A DNA stretch of 64,000 nucleotides. Source: Candidatus Latescibacterota bacterium (lineage in GTDB: Bacteria > Latescibacterota > UBA2968 > UBA8231). Shown one piece after another: positions 39,391 to 44,987 of this stretch (position 1 is the first letter of the stretch; each line of letters opens with the position of its first letter). Under the pieces are notes generated by a model that was given only the letters and a program-made list of their open reading frames with translations, ran no database searches and was not told the origin of the DNA. Location: assembly GCA_965208105.1 (NCBI GenBank), contig OZ242318.1, positions 3,168,001 through 3,232,000 of the forward strand, written 5' to 3'. The translations under genes were made by a program, and so were the position numbers.

Positions 39391-39430
39391 AATACCGCGG
39401 GCGCAACCAATGCGCTCGCGGTATTTTTGT
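39391..39430 (+). terminator. trp attenuator terminator
   Basis: AATACCGCGGGCGCA-ACCAA-TGCGCTCGCGGTATT-TTTGT; GGTGCGTCC (39346-39354) can pair with its left arm as an antiterminator. Confidence 0.85.
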
Positions 39431-39445
39431 GAATGGAGAGCGAAG

Positions 39446-41605
39446 ATGAGTGCAACACCGGTTACCGGTTCAACGACCGAAACTTTCCGGAGCAGGGGCG
39501 GGGTCGATATCCGCCGCACGATAGAAGGGGTGCCGATGGAGGGAGCTCTGGAAGGCGTGCTGGAGAAAATCGATACGCATCGCGGGGCGGTCTTTGCAAG
39601 TGGGTACGAGTATCCCGGACGCTACAGCCGCTGGGACGTTGCCTTCGTCGATCCTCCCCTGGAGATTGCCGCACGCCAGCGCTCCTTTGCGCTTCGCGCA
39701 TTGAACGAGCGCGGCGAGCGGCTCCTGCAGATTTTTGCCGGAGCTCTGAAAGGCCACGATCACCTGGCCGAGCTCGACGCGGCCAAAGACGAAATCCGCG
39801 GCCAGGTGAAACCCATGCTGGAGTACTTCGCCGAGGAGGAGCGCAGCAAGCAGCCGACGATCTTCAGCGTTCTGCGCGCCCTGGTCCGCCTGATGTACGC
39901 CGAGGCGGACAACAACCTGGGATTCTACGGAGCCATGGGCTATGACCTGGTTTTTCAGTTCGAACCCATTGAACTGCGCCACTCGCGCCCGGCTGAACAC
40001 CTGGATCTGCACCTCTTCGTGCCCGACGAACTGATCGTCGTCGATCACCGCAAGGAGAGGGCCAGGCGAATTCGCTACGATTTCACTTCGGGAGACCACT
40101 CTACCCGTGGCCTGGAGCGCGGCGGTGACGTGCTGCCGTTGCTGCGGGGCGCGACGACGGAGGTGAACAGCGACCACGGTGCGGGCGAGTACGCCGGCAA
40201 GGTGGGCGAAATCATCGCGGGCACGGAACGGGGCGACTTCTTCGAGGTGGTGCTGGGCCAGGTGCTGTGCGCGGGCTATTCAGGAACCCCTCGCGACCTG
40301 TTCGAGAGTATTCGCAGGAGGAATCCGAGTCCCTACGAGTTTTTGATAAACCTCGGCGGGGAGCAACTGGTGGGCGCCTCCCCCGAGATGTTCGTGCGGA
40401 TGGAGGACCGCCTGGTGGAGACCTGCCCCATTGCCGGGACGATCCAGCGCGGGGAAACTCCCATGGAAGACGCCGATCGGATTCTGGAGCTGCTGAACTC
40501 CGAAAAGGACAATGCCGAGCTCACCATGTGCACGGACGTGGACCGCAACGACAAGTCGAGAGTCTGCAAGCCCGGTACGGTTCAGGTGCTCGGGCGACGG
40601 CTCGTGGAGATATACTCGAAGCTGATCCACACGGTGGACTACGTCGCCGGAGAGCTGCGCGACGACTGCGATGGTTTCGACGCTCTGCTCTCGCACATGT
40701 GGGCGTGCACCGTGACCGGCGCCCCCAAGCCGGCCGCTATGCAGAAGATCGAGGACCTTGAGAACTCGGCTCGTCGCTGGTACGGCGGCTGCGTTGGAAT
40801 GGTGTTGTTCAGCGGCGAAGTAAATACGGGCATTACCATACGAACGGTGCACCTGGAGAATGGCAAGGCCAGCGTTCGCGCCGGCGCCACCCTGCTATGC
40901 GACTCGGACCCGGTGGAAGAAGAGCTCGAGACGCGGACCAAGGCGGAAGCCTTCATCCAGGCCATTCTCGACCAGGCACCCCCATCGAAGGGTCCACATG
41001 GAGCGGTTGCCGACACCGGCAGGGGCAAGAGGGTTCTCTTTGTGGACAATCGCGATTCGTTCGTTCACACTCTGGCCAACTACGTGCGCCAGACCGGAGC
41101 CGAGGTGACGACGGTGCGCGCGGGTTTCCCCGACCAGGTCTTTGACCAGGTCCGCCCCGACCTGGTTTTCATTTCTCCAGGACCTGGCACGCCGGAGGAG
41201 TTCGGCGTGGGGGAGCTGGTGCACCGCTGTGTCGAGCGCAGGCTTCCAATCTTTGGAGTCTGCCTCGGCCTGCAGGGGATGGTCGAGGCCTTCGGCGGCA
41301 GATTGGGAGTATTGTCGTACCCCATGCATGGCAAAAGTTCGATGATAAAGTGCATTCCCCGAGGAATTCTCGAAGGGTTTCCGGAGGAATTTGTCGCCGG
41401 ACGCTATCACTCGCTCTTCGCCGAGCCCGAGGATCTGCCCGACTGCTTTACCGTGTCCGCCCGCAGCGAAGACGGCGTGATCATGGCCGTGCAGCACCGG
41501 GAGTATCCAGCCGCCGCCGTGCAGTTTCACCCCGAGTCGATTCTGACCTTGAAGGACGATCTGGGGCTGCGCCTCATCGCCCAGGTCATGGCCCAATTGA
41601 CCTAG
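39446..41605 (+). CDS. trpE: fused anthranilate synthase TrpE(G)
   Basis: 'SGYEYPGRYSRWD', 'NPSPY', 'GASPEMFVR', 'ELTMCTDVDRND', 'TGAPK', 'WYGG', then GATase 'DSFVHTL', 'SPGPG', 'GVCLG.Q', 'QFHPES'. Confidence 0.95.
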   Translation: MSATPVTGSTTETFRSRGGVDIRRTIEGVPMEGALEGVLEKIDTHRGAVFASGYEYPGRYSRWDVAFVDPPLEIAARQRSFALRALNERGERLLQIFAGALKGHDHLAELDAAKDEIRGQVKPMLEYFAEEERSKQPTIFSVLRALVRLMYAEADNNLGFYGAMGYDLVFQFEPIELRHSRPAEHLDLHLFVPDELIVVDHRKERARRIRYDFTSGDHSTRGLERGGDVLPLLRGATTEVNSDHGAGEYAGKVGEIIAGTERGDFFEVVLGQVLCAGYSGTPRDLFESIRRRNPSPYEFLINLGGEQLVGASPEMFVRMEDRLVETCPIAGTIQRGETPMEDADRILELLNSEKDNAELTMCTDVDRNDKSRVCKPGTVQVLGRRLVEIYSKLIHTVDYVAGELRDDCDGFDALLSHMWACTVTGAPKPAAMQKIEDLENSARRWYGGCVGMVLFSGEVNTGITIRTVHLENGKASVRAGATLLCDSDPVEEELETRTKAEAFIQAILDQAPPSKGPHGAVADTGRGKRVLFVDNRDSFVHTLANYVRQTGAEVTTVRAGFPDQVFDQVRPDLVFISPGPGTPEEFGVGELVHRCVERRLPIFGVCLGLQGMVEAFGGRLGVLSYPMHGKSSMIKCIPRGILEGFPEEFVAGRYHSLFAEPEDLPDCFTVSARSEDGVIMAVQHREYPAAAVQFHPESILTLKDDLGLRLIAQVMAQLT

Positions 41606-41718
41606 ACCTTATGTATTGACGGAGATATGAAAGACCTCCTCCGACTCGGTTGTCGGGGGTTATCTTTGGGAAAACGGAGTTCACCCAAAGACCTATCCCC
41701 AGCGAGAAGGAGGAGGCC

Positions 41719-42858
41719 ATGCGTAAATCTACGAAATTCGTCGCCTTGGACATACATAAAGATTCGATCACCGTCGCCCTGGCCGGTGAAGGCCGAAAAG
41801 GGCCAGACCTGTATGGAACGATACCGTCTACGGGCGCCGCGTTGTCCAAGCTGGCGGGCCAACTGGCCCGTGGTGGGACCTCGTTGCGGTTTTGCTACGA
41901 GGCCGGACCCTGCGGCTACGGCGTCTACCGTCAGCTCACAGCCCTGGGGCACGCCTGCACGGTGGTGGCGCCCTCGCTGATCCCGCGTCGGCCGGGCGAC
42001 CGCATCAAGACCGACCGCCGCGATGCTGTGTCTCTGGTGCGGCTTTTCCAACACGGCGAGTTGACCCCCGTGTGGGTGCCCGACGAAGCGCAGGAGGCGA
42101 TGCGCGATCTGGAGCGCTGCCGGGAAGACTTCAAGCACGCCGAGCGCCGCGTGCGCCAGCGGCTGAACAGCTTCTTGCAGCGCCACGGCCGGATCTACTC
42201 CGGGCGCAGTCGCTGGACCCAAGCCCACTTTCGCTGGCTGCAGACCCAGCGCTTCGATCATCCGGCCCAGCAGATCGTCTTTCAGGAATACGTGGACGCG
42301 GTACAGGAAGCCCAAGGTCGGATCCAGGGGTTGGACCAGGCCCTGCAGCAGGCGCTGGAGGGATGGTCTTTGGAAGGGGAGACGCGGGCTATGAGGGCGC
42401 TGCGCGGGGTAGACACGCTCACCGCGGTTACGACCCTGGCCGAGTTGGGGGACCTCACCCGCTTTGACTCGCCGCGCCAACTGATGGCCTTCGTCGGTCT
42501 GGTCCCCAGCGAGCATTCCAGCGGCTCCCGCCAAAAGCGAGGGGCGATCACCAAGGCGGGCAACGCCCACGTGCGGCGCGTGCTGGTGGAAGCCGCCTGG
42601 TGCTATCGCTTTCCCGCCCGCAAGACGGCCGCCTTGCAACGACGCGCCGAACAGACCGCACCCCCCATACAGGCCATCGCCTGGAAGGCACAGAAACGCC
42701 TGTGTGGGCGCTATCGACGGCTGAGTGGGCGAGGGATGCCGAAAAACAAAGTCTGCACCGCGATCGCGCGGGAGCTTTTGGGTTTCATCTGGGCCATCGC
42801 CTGGGAGCAGAAACGCCCCGGCCGCCTCGTGGCCAGGAGGCCTCGGATCGCCGCCTGA
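41719..42858 (+). CDS. IS110-family DEDD recombinase (intact)
   Basis: 'ALDIHK', 'CYEAG', 'KTDRRDA', 'GLVPSEHSSG', 'ITKAGN..VRRVLVEAA'; AGGAGG SD. Confidence 0.95.
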   Translation: MRKSTKFVALDIHKDSITVALAGEGRKGPDLYGTIPSTGAALSKLAGQLARGGTSLRFCYEAGPCGYGVYRQLTALGHACTVVAPSLIPRRPGDRIKTDRRDAVSLVRLFQHGELTPVWVPDEAQEAMRDLERCREDFKHAERRVRQRLNSFLQRHGRIYSGRSRWTQAHFRWLQTQRFDHPAQQIVFQEYVDAVQEAQGRIQGLDQALQQALEGWSLEGETRAMRALRGVDTLTAVTTLAELGDLTRFDSPRQLMAFVGLVPSEHSSGSRQKRGAITKAGNAHVRRVLVEAAWCYRFPARKTAALQRRAEQTAPPIQAIAWKAQKRLCGRYRRLSGRGMPKNKVCTAIARELLGFIWAIAWEQKRPGRLVARRPRIAA

Positions 42859-42911
42859 TAAGCTCATCGTCTCAGAAGCCGGCATAGGACCTTTGCTCAT
42901 GTAAATCGAAA

Positions 42912-43081
42912 CGGGACAGAAGGGACCGGTCAGGAGAATCCTCGAAGACACTATGAGGCGCCTATCAGGCTGACCCTCGACTCTAGATTGAGGCCGCTCC
43001 GCGACGCACCCAGGACAGGCGGTAACCAACCCGCGAATATCAGTCGGATCAACCGTCGCTACAGCGTCCCTTCTGTTCCCG
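42912..43081 (+). ncRNA. putative bridge/seek RNA of the IS1111-type element
   Basis: Closing stem CGGGACAGAAGGGAC / GTCCCTTCTGTTCCCG encloses two internal loops carrying target-matching (GACACTA, CTAG) and donor-matching (ATATCAG) segments. Confidence 0.65.
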
Positions 43082-43151
43082 AACAAACTCATGCAAAGAT
43101 AACACCCGAAACGACCACCCCGGAGGGGGTTGACAACCGTCAATACATATC

Positions 43152-43317
43152 AGTGTCCCGTAGCAGAGATATGTCGCCATTATTCCGCCGATCCATCCCG
43201 GCTCACGGCGTTGCCTTCACTCGCCGTACACCACTGGTACGACTCGCTCAGGCGCCTTGTGAGCCGGGCGCCTCGGCGGCCCAATTTCGTCAACCTATCT
43301 CTGCGACGGGACACTAG
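43152..43317. repeat. ~168-bp MITE-like repeat, copy 1
   Basis: TIR-like ends (CT)AGTGTCCCGTAGCAGAGATA ... TATCTCTGCGACGGGACACTAG; near-identical copy at 57946-58113. Confidence 0.9.
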
Positions 43318-43384
43318 CGGAACCATGGTGGGACCTGGGCGAGGCACATCAGGATCGGATCCTTCGTTCACCAGGGGCAGACAA

Positions 43385-43948
43385 GTGATCTTGGTACTTG
43401 ATAATTACGATTCGTTTACCTACAATTTGACCCAATATCTCCAAATCCTTGGCGCCCAGGTCCTCGTGTATCAGAACGATGAGCTTTCCATCGAGGAGAT
43501 CGAGGCCCTGGCCCCGGAGAAAATCGTCATATCTCCGGGGCCTTCCACGCCCGACCAGGCGGGCATCTCCCTGGAGGTTGTCCGCCGTTTCGCCCCGGGG
43601 ATTCCCCTGCTCGGGGTTTGCCTGGGCCACCAGGCAATCGGACAAGCTTTCGGCGGAGTGGTGGCGCGGGCTCCTCGTGTCGTGCACGGAAAGACCGCGG
43701 AGATCTACCACGATGGCCGCACCATCTATGAGGGACTGGACAATCCACTGGTCGCCACCTGCTATCACTCACTGATGGTGGAGCGCGAAACGGTTCCGGA
43801 TTGTCTCGAGATTTCCGCCGAGACCGAAGACGGAATCGTAATGGGGTTGCGCCACAGGAAGTACGCCGTCGAAGGGGTGCAATTTCACCCGGAATCGATT
43901 CTCACGACCCAGGGCAAAGACCTTTTGAGCAATTTCCTGCGGGAATAA
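43385..43948 (+). CDS. trpG: glutamine amidotransferase TrpG/PabA
   Basis: 'LDNYDSFTYNL', 'ISPGP', 'GVCLGHQ', 'YHSL', 'GVQFHPESI'; GTG start. Confidence 0.92.
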   Translation: MILVLDNYDSFTYNLTQYLQILGAQVLVYQNDELSIEEIEALAPEKIVISPGPSTPDQAGISLEVVRRFAPGIPLLGVCLGHQAIGQAFGGVVARAPRVVHGKTAEIYHDGRTIYEGLDNPLVATCYHSLMVERETVPDCLEISAETEDGIVMGLRHRKYAVEGVQFHPESILTTQGKDLLSNFLRE

Positions 43949-43976
43949 GGACACCTTCCAGAGCAAAGGGCAGAGG

Positions 43977-44987
43977 ATGATACAGGAAGCCATACAAAAA
44001 CTCGTCGGTGGACGCGGTCTGACCCGCGAAGAAGCTCGCGGGGTGATGGACCAGATCATGAGCGGCGGAGCTACCGATGCCCAGATCGGGGCCTTTCTGG
44101 TCGCCTTGCGCTGCAAGGGAGAGAGCGTGGACGAAATCGCCGGCTGCGCCCAGGCGATGCGGGAGAAGGCTACCCGCGTCCAGACAAGCAGGGACCCGGT
44201 GATCGACACTTGCGGCACGGGAGGTGACGGTTCCGGTACCTTCAACATTTCGACGACCGTCGCTTTCGTTGCAGCCGGAGCCGGGTTGTGCGTGGCCAAG
44301 CACGGCAACCGCGCCATGTCGAGCCAGTGCGGTTCGGCGGACGTGCTTCAGGCCCTGGGGGTCAATATAGAAATCAGCCCCGACAAGGTGGGGAAATGCC
44401 TCGACGAGGCGGGCATCGGCTTTCTGTTTGCACCGCTGCTCCATGGCGCAATGAAGCACGCAATCGGTCCCCGCCGCGAGATCGGTGCGCGCACGGTTTT
44501 CAATGCCCTCGGGCCGCTGACCAATCCCGCCGGTGCCAGGAGGCAGTTGATCGGTGTTTACGACGGCGATCTGACCGGGAAGCTGGCCGGGGTGCTGCAT
44601 GAACTGGGCTCGGAACGCGCCTTCGTAGTCCATGGCAGCGACGGTTTGGACGAGATTACCCTGACCGGCATGACCCGGGTCGCCGAGCTGAACGCTGGAA
44701 GCATCGAAACCTACGAGATCAGGCCCGGGGATTTGGGTTTCGATGAAGCCGGAGTGGAGGAGCTGAAGGGAGGCAATGCGGAGGAGAACGCGGGGATCCT
44801 GCTGGAGGTGCTCGATGGAGGGAAAGGACCCCGCAGTGATGTGGTGTTGATGAACGCAGCCGCAGCCATCGCGGCCGGTGGCCTGGCGTCCAGCCTGGAG
44901 GAAGGGGTCGACCGGGCGCGATCCGCGATTTCCTCGGGCAGGGCGCGGGAAGCCCTCGAGAAGCTGAAAGGGGTAAGCAATAGTTGA
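43977..44987 (+). CDS. trpD: anthranilate phosphoribosyltransferase
   Basis: 'DTCGTGGDG..TFNIST', 'KHGNR..SS..GSAD', 'RTVFN.LGPLTNP', 'GLDEI'. Confidence 0.97.
   Translation: MIQEAIQKLVGGRGLTREEARGVMDQIMSGGATDAQIGAFLVALRCKGESVDEIAGCAQAMREKATRVQTSRDPVIDTCGTGGDGSGTFNISTTVAFVAAGAGLCVAKHGNRAMSSQCGSADVLQALGVNIEISPDKVGKCLDEAGIGFLFAPLLHGAMKHAIGPRREIGARTVFNALGPLTNPAGARRQLIGVYDGDLTGKLAGVLHELGSERAFVVHGSDGLDEITLTGMTRVAELNAGSIETYEIRPGDLGFDEAGVEELKGGNAEENAGILLEVLDGGKGPRSDVVLMNAAAAIAAGGLASSLEEGVDRARSAISSGRAREALEKLKGVSNS

Follow-up and report, generated by a model that had tools for sequence, protein, structure and literature searches.

The window analysed here is a stretch of 64,000 nucleotides from the genome of a Candidatus Latescibacterota bacterium (contig OZ242318.1), and its positions 41606-43153 are a 1548-bp insertion sequence (IS) of the IS110 family with an IS1111-type layout. 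We conclude, with a probability of roughly 0.9, that this is an intact element that carries its own guide RNA, matched both to its target and to its own ends (the donor), and that it homes into the ends of a MITE (miniature inverted-repeat transposable element). The observations behind this conclusion are the anatomy of the element, the sites of its copies, the conservation of an RNA structure in its 3' end, and the covariation of the guide with the target and with the element ends among relatives. For the guide reading, comparison among copies and relatives weighs most: all 12 copies in the genome have a CTAG|TG junction and the loop letters covary with the flanking DNA in relatives.

The element, its copies and its target site

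Where the element begins and ends can be read from its junctions. The left one reads ...GACCTAG|ACCTTATG, that is, CTAG|ACCT..., and the right one reads ...ACATATCAG|TGTCCCGTAGCAGAGATA, that is, ...ATCAG|TGTC. The two-nucleotide core AG therefore stands at both junctions. When 41606-43153 is removed in silico, CTAG joins TGTCCCGT..., and a 168-bp repeat thereby regains an intact end. An earlier reading of this stretch from its letters alone (the sequence-only reading) had proposed both the AG core and the restored left end of the repeat, and both are confirmed. The features at and around the element are as follows.

41602-41605, + strand: left half of the target, CTAG, in which AG (41604-41605) is the left copy of the two-nucleotide core
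41606-43153, + strand: the insertion sequence (1548 bp), whose final two bases, 43152-43153, are the right copy of the AG core
41610-41622, + strand: left subterminal inverted repeat TATGTATTGACGG, with the 4-nt extension ACCT just before it
41719-42858, + strand: transposase gene, 379 amino acids, with AGGAGG before its ATG
43137-43149, + strand: right subterminal inverted repeat CCGTCAATACATA; TC and the AG core come directly after it
43154-43317, + strand: body of the MITE, 168 bp together with 41602-41605, with terminal inverted repeats (TIRs) TGTCCCGTAGCAGAGATA and TATCTCTGCGACGGGACA and with CTAG at 43314-43317

The subterminal inverted repeats form a perfect 13-bp pair. The transposase gene leaves 113 nt of non-coding DNA upstream (41606-41718) and 295 nt downstream (42859-43153). 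Its product matches the Pfam families PF01548 (DEDD_Tnp_IS110, E 5.6e-13) and PF02371 (Transposase_20, E 1.7e-22), scores 263 bits against the NCBIfam model NF033542, 'IS110 family RNA-guided transposase' (cut-off 140), and has the motif GLVPSEHSSG at residues 260-269.

We searched for further copies in the element's own genome (one contig, 4.85 Mb) and found 12 in all. Every one of them has AG at both junctions and CTAG|TG in its flanks. Ten are inserted at CTAG|TGTCCCGT, the MITE end, and in these the element's right end always faces the MITE; seven of them occupy one end of the repeat and three the opposite one. The remaining two lie outside MITEs, at CTAG|TGGTCGC and CTAG|TGTTGTG. The sequence-only reading had placed the target at the end of the MITE from a single insertion; mapping of the copies bears this out for the ten in CTAGTGTC at MITE ends, the other two being in CTAGTG(G/T). 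It had also taken the element to be intact, a member of the IS110 family with IS1111-type anatomy, and the open reading frame (ORF) of the transposase is indeed whole in 10 of the 12 copies; one copy is frameshifted and one has a 120-bp deletion. Over the 1548 bp, seven copies have an identity that rounds to 100%, and these near-identical copies differ at few of the variable columns.

The 168-bp repeat has the features of a MITE: it is short, non-coding, bounded by TIRs and multicopy, with 89 near-full copies among 142 matching loci in the genome and 84 inverted-repeat pairs at a spacing of 165-167 bp. No TIR pair at IS-like spacing was found anywhere in the genome; the MITE is therefore without a resident autonomous parent. 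Nor was a parent seen in genus g16, where the relative adjoins only an 18-bp repeat-like end before a 491-amino-acid ORF, in a flank without a further TIR or a transposase-sized mobile element. Fourteen loci (for example, G000:C1:852-948 and 142615-142711) match MITE positions 36-132 only, at ~87% identity; this second repeat family has the MITE interior in common with the 168-bp repeat, not the MITE ends.

Predicted guide RNA, target and element ends

What could direct the element to this site? Its 3' non-coding end is predicted to encode a guide RNA of the kind called seekRNA or bridge RNA, with the following parts.

42914-43077, + strand: predicted seekRNA/bridge RNA, ~164 nt, with predicted ends; the target and donor stem-loops sit within a basal stem (42914-42925 / 43067-43077)
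42933-43000, + strand: target-binding stem-loop, with GGAG 42933-42936 / CUCC 42997-43000, CCUC 42940-42943 / GAGG 42990-42993 and an inner stem 42955-42963 / 42967-42978
42947-42953, + strand: 5' strand of the target loop, GACACUA, complementary to top strand T-AG-TGTC (the core and 4 nt of the MITE end)
42983-42987, + strand: CUAG(A), the 3' strand of the target loop, which repeats the top strand of the left flank and core and would pair with the bottom strand
43001-43059, + strand: donor-binding stem-loop, with outer stem GCGACG / CGUCGC and inner hairpin 43019-43022 / 43031-43034
43012-43016, + strand: candidate left-end donor guide AGGAC, which pairs with the core G and ACCT at 4 of 5 positions and is less secure
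43037-43043, + strand: right-end donor guide AUAUCAG, identical to the element's last 7 nt including the core

In the target loop, the 5' strand A-GACA-CU-A faces T-AG-TGTC, and the 3' strand CU-AG-A repeats the left flank and core. The match to the top strand lies 5' of the match to the bottom strand in the element. The sequence-only reading had described an internal loop closed by CCTCGA (42940-42945) and TTGAGG (42988-42993) and by the inner stem GAGG (42955-42958) / CCTC (42975-42978), carrying GACACTA (42947-42953) on one side and CTAG (42983-42986) on the other, and a second loop carrying ATATCAG (43037-43043). All of these strings sit where it put them. A minimum-free-energy fold of the 295-nt 3' end recovers this internal loop, and the fold together with an alignment of 37 relatives places a target loop and a donor loop in the positions proposed. 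When the non-coding end was shuffled 20000 times at the mononucleotide level, GACACTA turned up in 449 shuffles, ATATCAG in 268 and both in 3.

Is the structure conserved? We fetched 80 related loci from many phyla, whose transposases are 56-85% identical to that of the window; three more came from same-family genomes. In all, 83 loci were examined (the window, L021, L027 and these 80). The structure alignment comprises 37 non-redundant RNA regions of the 45 rows listed. It leaves out the near-duplicates L052, L074, L078 and L108 and four Bryobacterales loci with a duplicated target loop (L104, L106, L111 and L120), in which part of the target stem-loop is tandemly duplicated and the region is ~30 nt longer. 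The termini of the relatives are conserved and read AG|ACAT.ATG.ATTGACC ... GGTCAAT.CATATCAG|. In the consensus RNA, 20 of the 37 pairs show compensatory changes, and the GGAG/CUCC clamp is invariant. Paired positions are occupied by pairing bases in 92.6% of cells, against 37-48% when the partners are slid by 1-3 columns, and not one of the five structure values observed was attained in 500 shuffles. The sequences share kinship, so that these counts and those that follow overstate the number of evolutionary events. A scan of 41000-44000 against Rfam, with E up to 1, returned two chance-level matches only, both outside the element; no curated family therefore covers the guide RNA.

The target loop follows the target. 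To score it, we counted the bases, contiguous from the core, at which the 5' strand of the guide matches the right flank. The scored set holds 55 elements with both flanks, or 49 distinct combinations of guide and target. Outside these counts are 24 of the 83 loci whose ends were uncalled, including four false calls removed by hand (L044, L087, L100 and L119), and four more loci with short flanks (L068, L080, L091 and L096). In 32 of the 49 combinations the guide matches its own right flank over 4-7 nt, whereas guides set against the unrelated targets of other elements match over at least 4 nt in 11 of 2282 pairings. The left-flank strand matches its own flank over a mean of 2.65 nt, compared with 0.98. 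Counted by distinct guide, 22 of 31 match their own flank over at least 4 nt, and 26 of 31 do so if the core letters are ignored. Among the four guides gained in this way, those of the L069 group, L076 and L121 face the core with U or A, not with C-U; the fourth is L081, an exception that probably reflects a mis-called right end. The loop misses its target in L027, L043, L065, L088 and L099, whose guides may belong to off-target insertions or drifted copies. Relatives that have other targets show loop letters that differ accordingly.

The left-flank strand of the guide varies within the genome. Among the 12 copies, positions 42982, 42983 and 42988 differ, giving UCUAG, CCUAG and CAUAG, and the base to the left of CTAG is matched in some copies only. 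Contigs from RNA libraries of other samples show additional variants at 42981-42982. Beyond UAG, this strand seems loosely constrained.

The donor loop likewise follows the ends of the element. The sequence-only reading had noticed that ATATCAG in the second loop equals the element's own right junction. This holds, and the loop covaries with the end: in 35 of 37 relatives, the last 7 nt of the element recur unchanged in the right-end guide. Three elements (L061, L067 and L102) end in ATACCAG, and all three have AUACCAG as guide; L121 ends in ATCAA, and its guide has changed likewise. In L081 the donor guide is irregular. A partner strand for the left end was not named in the sequence-only reading; AGGAC at 43012-43016 is the probable one. 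In 34 of 37 relatives, at least 4 of the 5 positions of the aligned 5-mer can pair with the core G and the first four bases of the left end; the window clade (ACCT with AGG), L107 (AGAA with UACUC) and L121 show compensatory changes.

How might these parts work together? The RNA would be made and then bound by the transposase. Its target loop would pair with both strands of the target around the AG core, GACACUA with the top strand T-AG-TGTC and CUAG with the bottom strand. The donor loop would pair with the joined ends of the element, AUAUCAG with the right end and core and AGGAC, the probable partner, with the core G and ACCT. By analogy with tested family members, the element would excise as a circle in which the right end is joined through AG to the left end. 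The complex of RNA and transposase would recombine the circle junction with CTAG|TGTC, without target duplication. The element would accumulate at either MITE end because its 8-mer target occurs mostly at the ends of the 168-bp MITE in this genome.

A locus outside the window brings the MITE and a guide RNA together. At G000:C1:3999480-4001600, one pair of IS and MITE is flanked, in the opposite orientation, by an older, ~85%-identical remnant of a related guide-RNA region. This remnant is split exactly at the UAG of the 3' strand of its own target loop; therefore the MITE would once have inserted into the guide's mimic of the target. Because the genome contains 1649 CTAG sites, this single case may be due to chance. 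The same flanks provide the one informative case for target duplication by the MITE, and they fit duplication of TA with the MITE starting at G. If the MITE does duplicate TA, the IS would cut one base inside the terminal repeat, and each insertion would disable that end of the MITE.

Other MITE ends and other explanations

Does the association with MITE ends reach beyond this genome? L021, from another genus and with 81% nucleotide identity, is located at the same kind of end, TGTCCTGTCGCAGAAATA. Several relatives with other guides adjoin the end of short inverted-repeat elements (63-442 bp) that have CTAG or CTAC again behind their far end. Elements of ~160 bp beginning GAG(G/C/T)CTGTCGG are found at L046, L054, L061, L062, L063 and L066, and a 63-bp version at L064; a 92-bp element beginning CGCAGGGCTCG is found at L106, L108, L111 and L117, and a 442-bp element at L073. 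Nearly all guides keep CUA / UAG beside the variable letters. The hosts of this IS1111-like clade include Latescibacterota, Gammaproteobacteria, Desulfobulbaceae, Bryobacterales and other groups. These cases suggest a clade whose members have turned time and again to the ends of local CTAG-flanked MITEs. Most other target types had no partner repeat within ~800 bp, and the MITE-end pattern therefore covers a minority of targets. A bolder proposal is that this widespread clade is a specialised hyperparasite of MITE ends, with CUA/UAG fixed on the flanking TAG and the variable part repeatedly rewritten to match the opening 4-7 bases of any MITE that the host has in abundance. We offer it tentatively, at somewhat less than even odds; if true, the elements would form a natural series of reprogrammed guides.

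The recurrence of such pairings, at L021 and at relatives whose guides and inverted-repeat elements are different, would be hard to obtain by accident, and it makes us regard as less likely than not a competing explanation, that the association with the MITE is incidental. The guide would then recognise the 8-mer CTAGTGTC that the MITE happens to carry, with no tuning and no safe-harbour benefit. Within this genome, however, such plain 8-mer recognition is enough to account for the MITE bias, because 73 of the 87 CTAGTGTC sites (~84%) are within MITE loci. That all ten perfect-site insertions are in MITEs is then unsurprising (0.84^10 ~0.17), and two of the 12 copies are at non-MITE CTAGTG sites. 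The location of the element in the window is also not obviously harmless. Together, IS and MITE form a 1.7-kb insert that separates a fused TrpE-GATase (anthranilate-synthase) gene from a second GATase gene and trpD (39410-44987), and the TAG of the target is the stop codon of the upstream fused gene. The sequence-only reading had portrayed the MITE as a safe harbour; insertion at MITE ends stands, whereas the benefit to the element is inferred, the bias being explained by recognition of the 8-mer.

Several results weigh against our reading of an intact, guide-programmed element. As a whole, the 3' end is only a little more stable in its fold than shuffled versions of it (z = -1.52). Under the strict rule, 9 of the 31 distinct guides match their own flank over fewer than 4 nt. 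In L088 the donor guide reads AUACCAG though the end is ATATCAG. The left-end guide contains a mismatch in most relatives and shows only three compensatory events. The transposase, at 379 amino acids, is distant from that of IS5075, with 27% identity over residues 65-296 only (E 9e-16); the designation 'IS1111-type' given by the sequence-only reading is apt for the anatomy and less clearly so for the protein. The other adverse results concern expression and movement. A scan of 41500-43400 for sigma-70-like promoters found none in the linear element. A promoter could arise where the right end joins the left end in the circle: judged by eye, relatives have a good one there (TTGACA, 17 nt, CATAAT), and the window lineage has TTGACA with a poor -10. 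Two RNA (metatranscriptome) libraries yield contigs that span most of the element, 42571-43277 included, with a likeness of 90-99%; such contigs can contain DNA and show neither transcription nor its absence. Contigs of four public runs hold no circle joint (43153 to 41606) and no empty-site joint (41605 to 43154).

Two features of the element may bear on its expression.

41638-41659, + strand: GC-rich hairpin and T-run in the left end, 5' of the transposase start
43130-43135, + strand: TTGACA, a possible -35 of the junction promoter

No other strong site of terminator type lies on the + strand of the left end, and the hairpin and T-run are possibly a barrier to read-through from outside the element.

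Might the element family be immobile in this genome now, so that the pattern records past activity only? The missing joints, the want of a promoter-like site, the poor -10 at the junction and the two broken copies point this way. The joints weigh little, because contigs drop rare variants. Seven copies of rounded 100% identity over their full length and ten whole ORFs argue against it, and we think present immobility improbable. The implication of the sequence-only reading that the recombinase is working thus draws support from the near-identical copies and none from the contigs; we infer that the element may be active at present.

Far less probable still is that the transposase protein alone picks the target and that the matching RNA-like segments are by-products, such as target fragments acquired at the ends: although the match of the 5' strand in the window is just 7 nt long, the segments lie 170-210 nt inside the element within a conserved, covarying structure, among relatives with transposases 56-64% identical to that of the window a different target goes with different segments, and family members tested by experiment need the non-coding RNA and can be reprogrammed (PMC11187229).

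Known systems and what the element adds

How does the element in the window compare with systems already described? In 2024, guide RNAs of IS110/IS1111 elements were demonstrated experimentally (PMC11187229, PMC11208160). Members of the IS1111 subgroup have asymmetric terminal extensions, 7 (or 6) bp long at the left end and 3 bp long at the right end, and their transposases are 330-350 amino acids long (PMC11187229). In their seekRNAs the match to the top strand comes first, and in the IS110-type ISEc21 the order is reversed (PMC11187229). The element in the window has the same segment order as the seekRNAs of ISEc11, ISKpn4, ISPa11 and ISPst6 (Siddiquee et al. 2024, PMC11187229), and it shares the subterminal inverted repeats, ~11-13 bp long in the subgroup, and the long non-coding region downstream of the gene. 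It differs from the IS1111-family elements of that study in its longer transposase (379 amino acids) and in being known from sequence alone. With AG counted on the left, the extensions are 7 and 3 in our relatives (AGACATC / ATC) and 6 and 2 in the window, because the window repeat is 1 bp longer; these numbers depend on how the core is assigned. Given this mixture, we call the element 'IS110 family, IS1111-type architecture'.

The bridge RNA of IS621 (Durrant et al. 2024, PMC11208160) is similar in that it has target and donor internal loops, each with two strands that read opposite DNA strands. The 2-nt core of IS621, CT, corresponds to AG on the other strand here (PMC11208160). In contrast to the element in the window, where a basal stem encloses both loops, IS621 has its RNA in the left end and the segment order reversed (PMC11208160). 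The transposase matches the solved IS621 and ISCro4 proteins in the C-terminal domain only (IS621, E 2.2e-05). The IS621 bridge RNA is reportedly also the subject of work by Hiraizumi et al. in 2024.

The closest named element is ISEc45 (its PGAP name; on an E. coli plasmid, L123), with 48% amino acid identity over 357 aligned residues (379 versus 377 amino acids). By eye, it has a similar CCUCG...UAGA...GAGG motif in a 3' non-coding end; it differs from our element in its ends and target. As for homing, IS4321 and IS5075 are said to enter the ends of Tn21. Together with ISEc21, which homes into IS3-family genes (PMC11187229), they resemble the element in the window in choosing mobile DNA, but their targets are IS genes or large transposons and not the end of a MITE.

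The nearest precedent for a MITE as target is in Coxiella burnetii. There, 20 of 21 IS1111 copies are inside QMITE2, at loci called insertion hot-spots (Wachter et al. 2018, PMC5896051). As in our genome, an IS of the same family is found almost exclusively in a multicopy MITE (PMC5896051). The Coxiella site, however, is a palindromic GTAG that lies 10-20 bp inward from the end of the MITE, whereas the site here is the junction of flanking CTAG and TIR. The hosts, MITEs and transposases of the two cases are unrelated or distant, and the Coxiella study (PMC5896051) predates guide RNAs. In the literature on IS110 or IS1111 together with MITEs, we found no case besides Coxiella IS1111.

Recombination directed by guide RNA (2024) and insertion of IS1111 into MITEs (2018) are thus already known, and no new mechanism is proposed here. 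What may be new is that several relatives in other phyla are found at the ends of different CTAG-flanked MITEs. How IS1111-type seekRNAs pair is known in less detail than for IS621. Some 30 differently programmed guides, all built on a single RNA scaffold and accompanied by their cognate targets and donor ends, are a clean natural data set that can help define the pairing rules: which positions are read, how much G·U pairing is tolerated at the core, and how long the guide strands are. The element and its relatives also add cases, in uncultured phyla, of one selfish element landing in another, the MITE.

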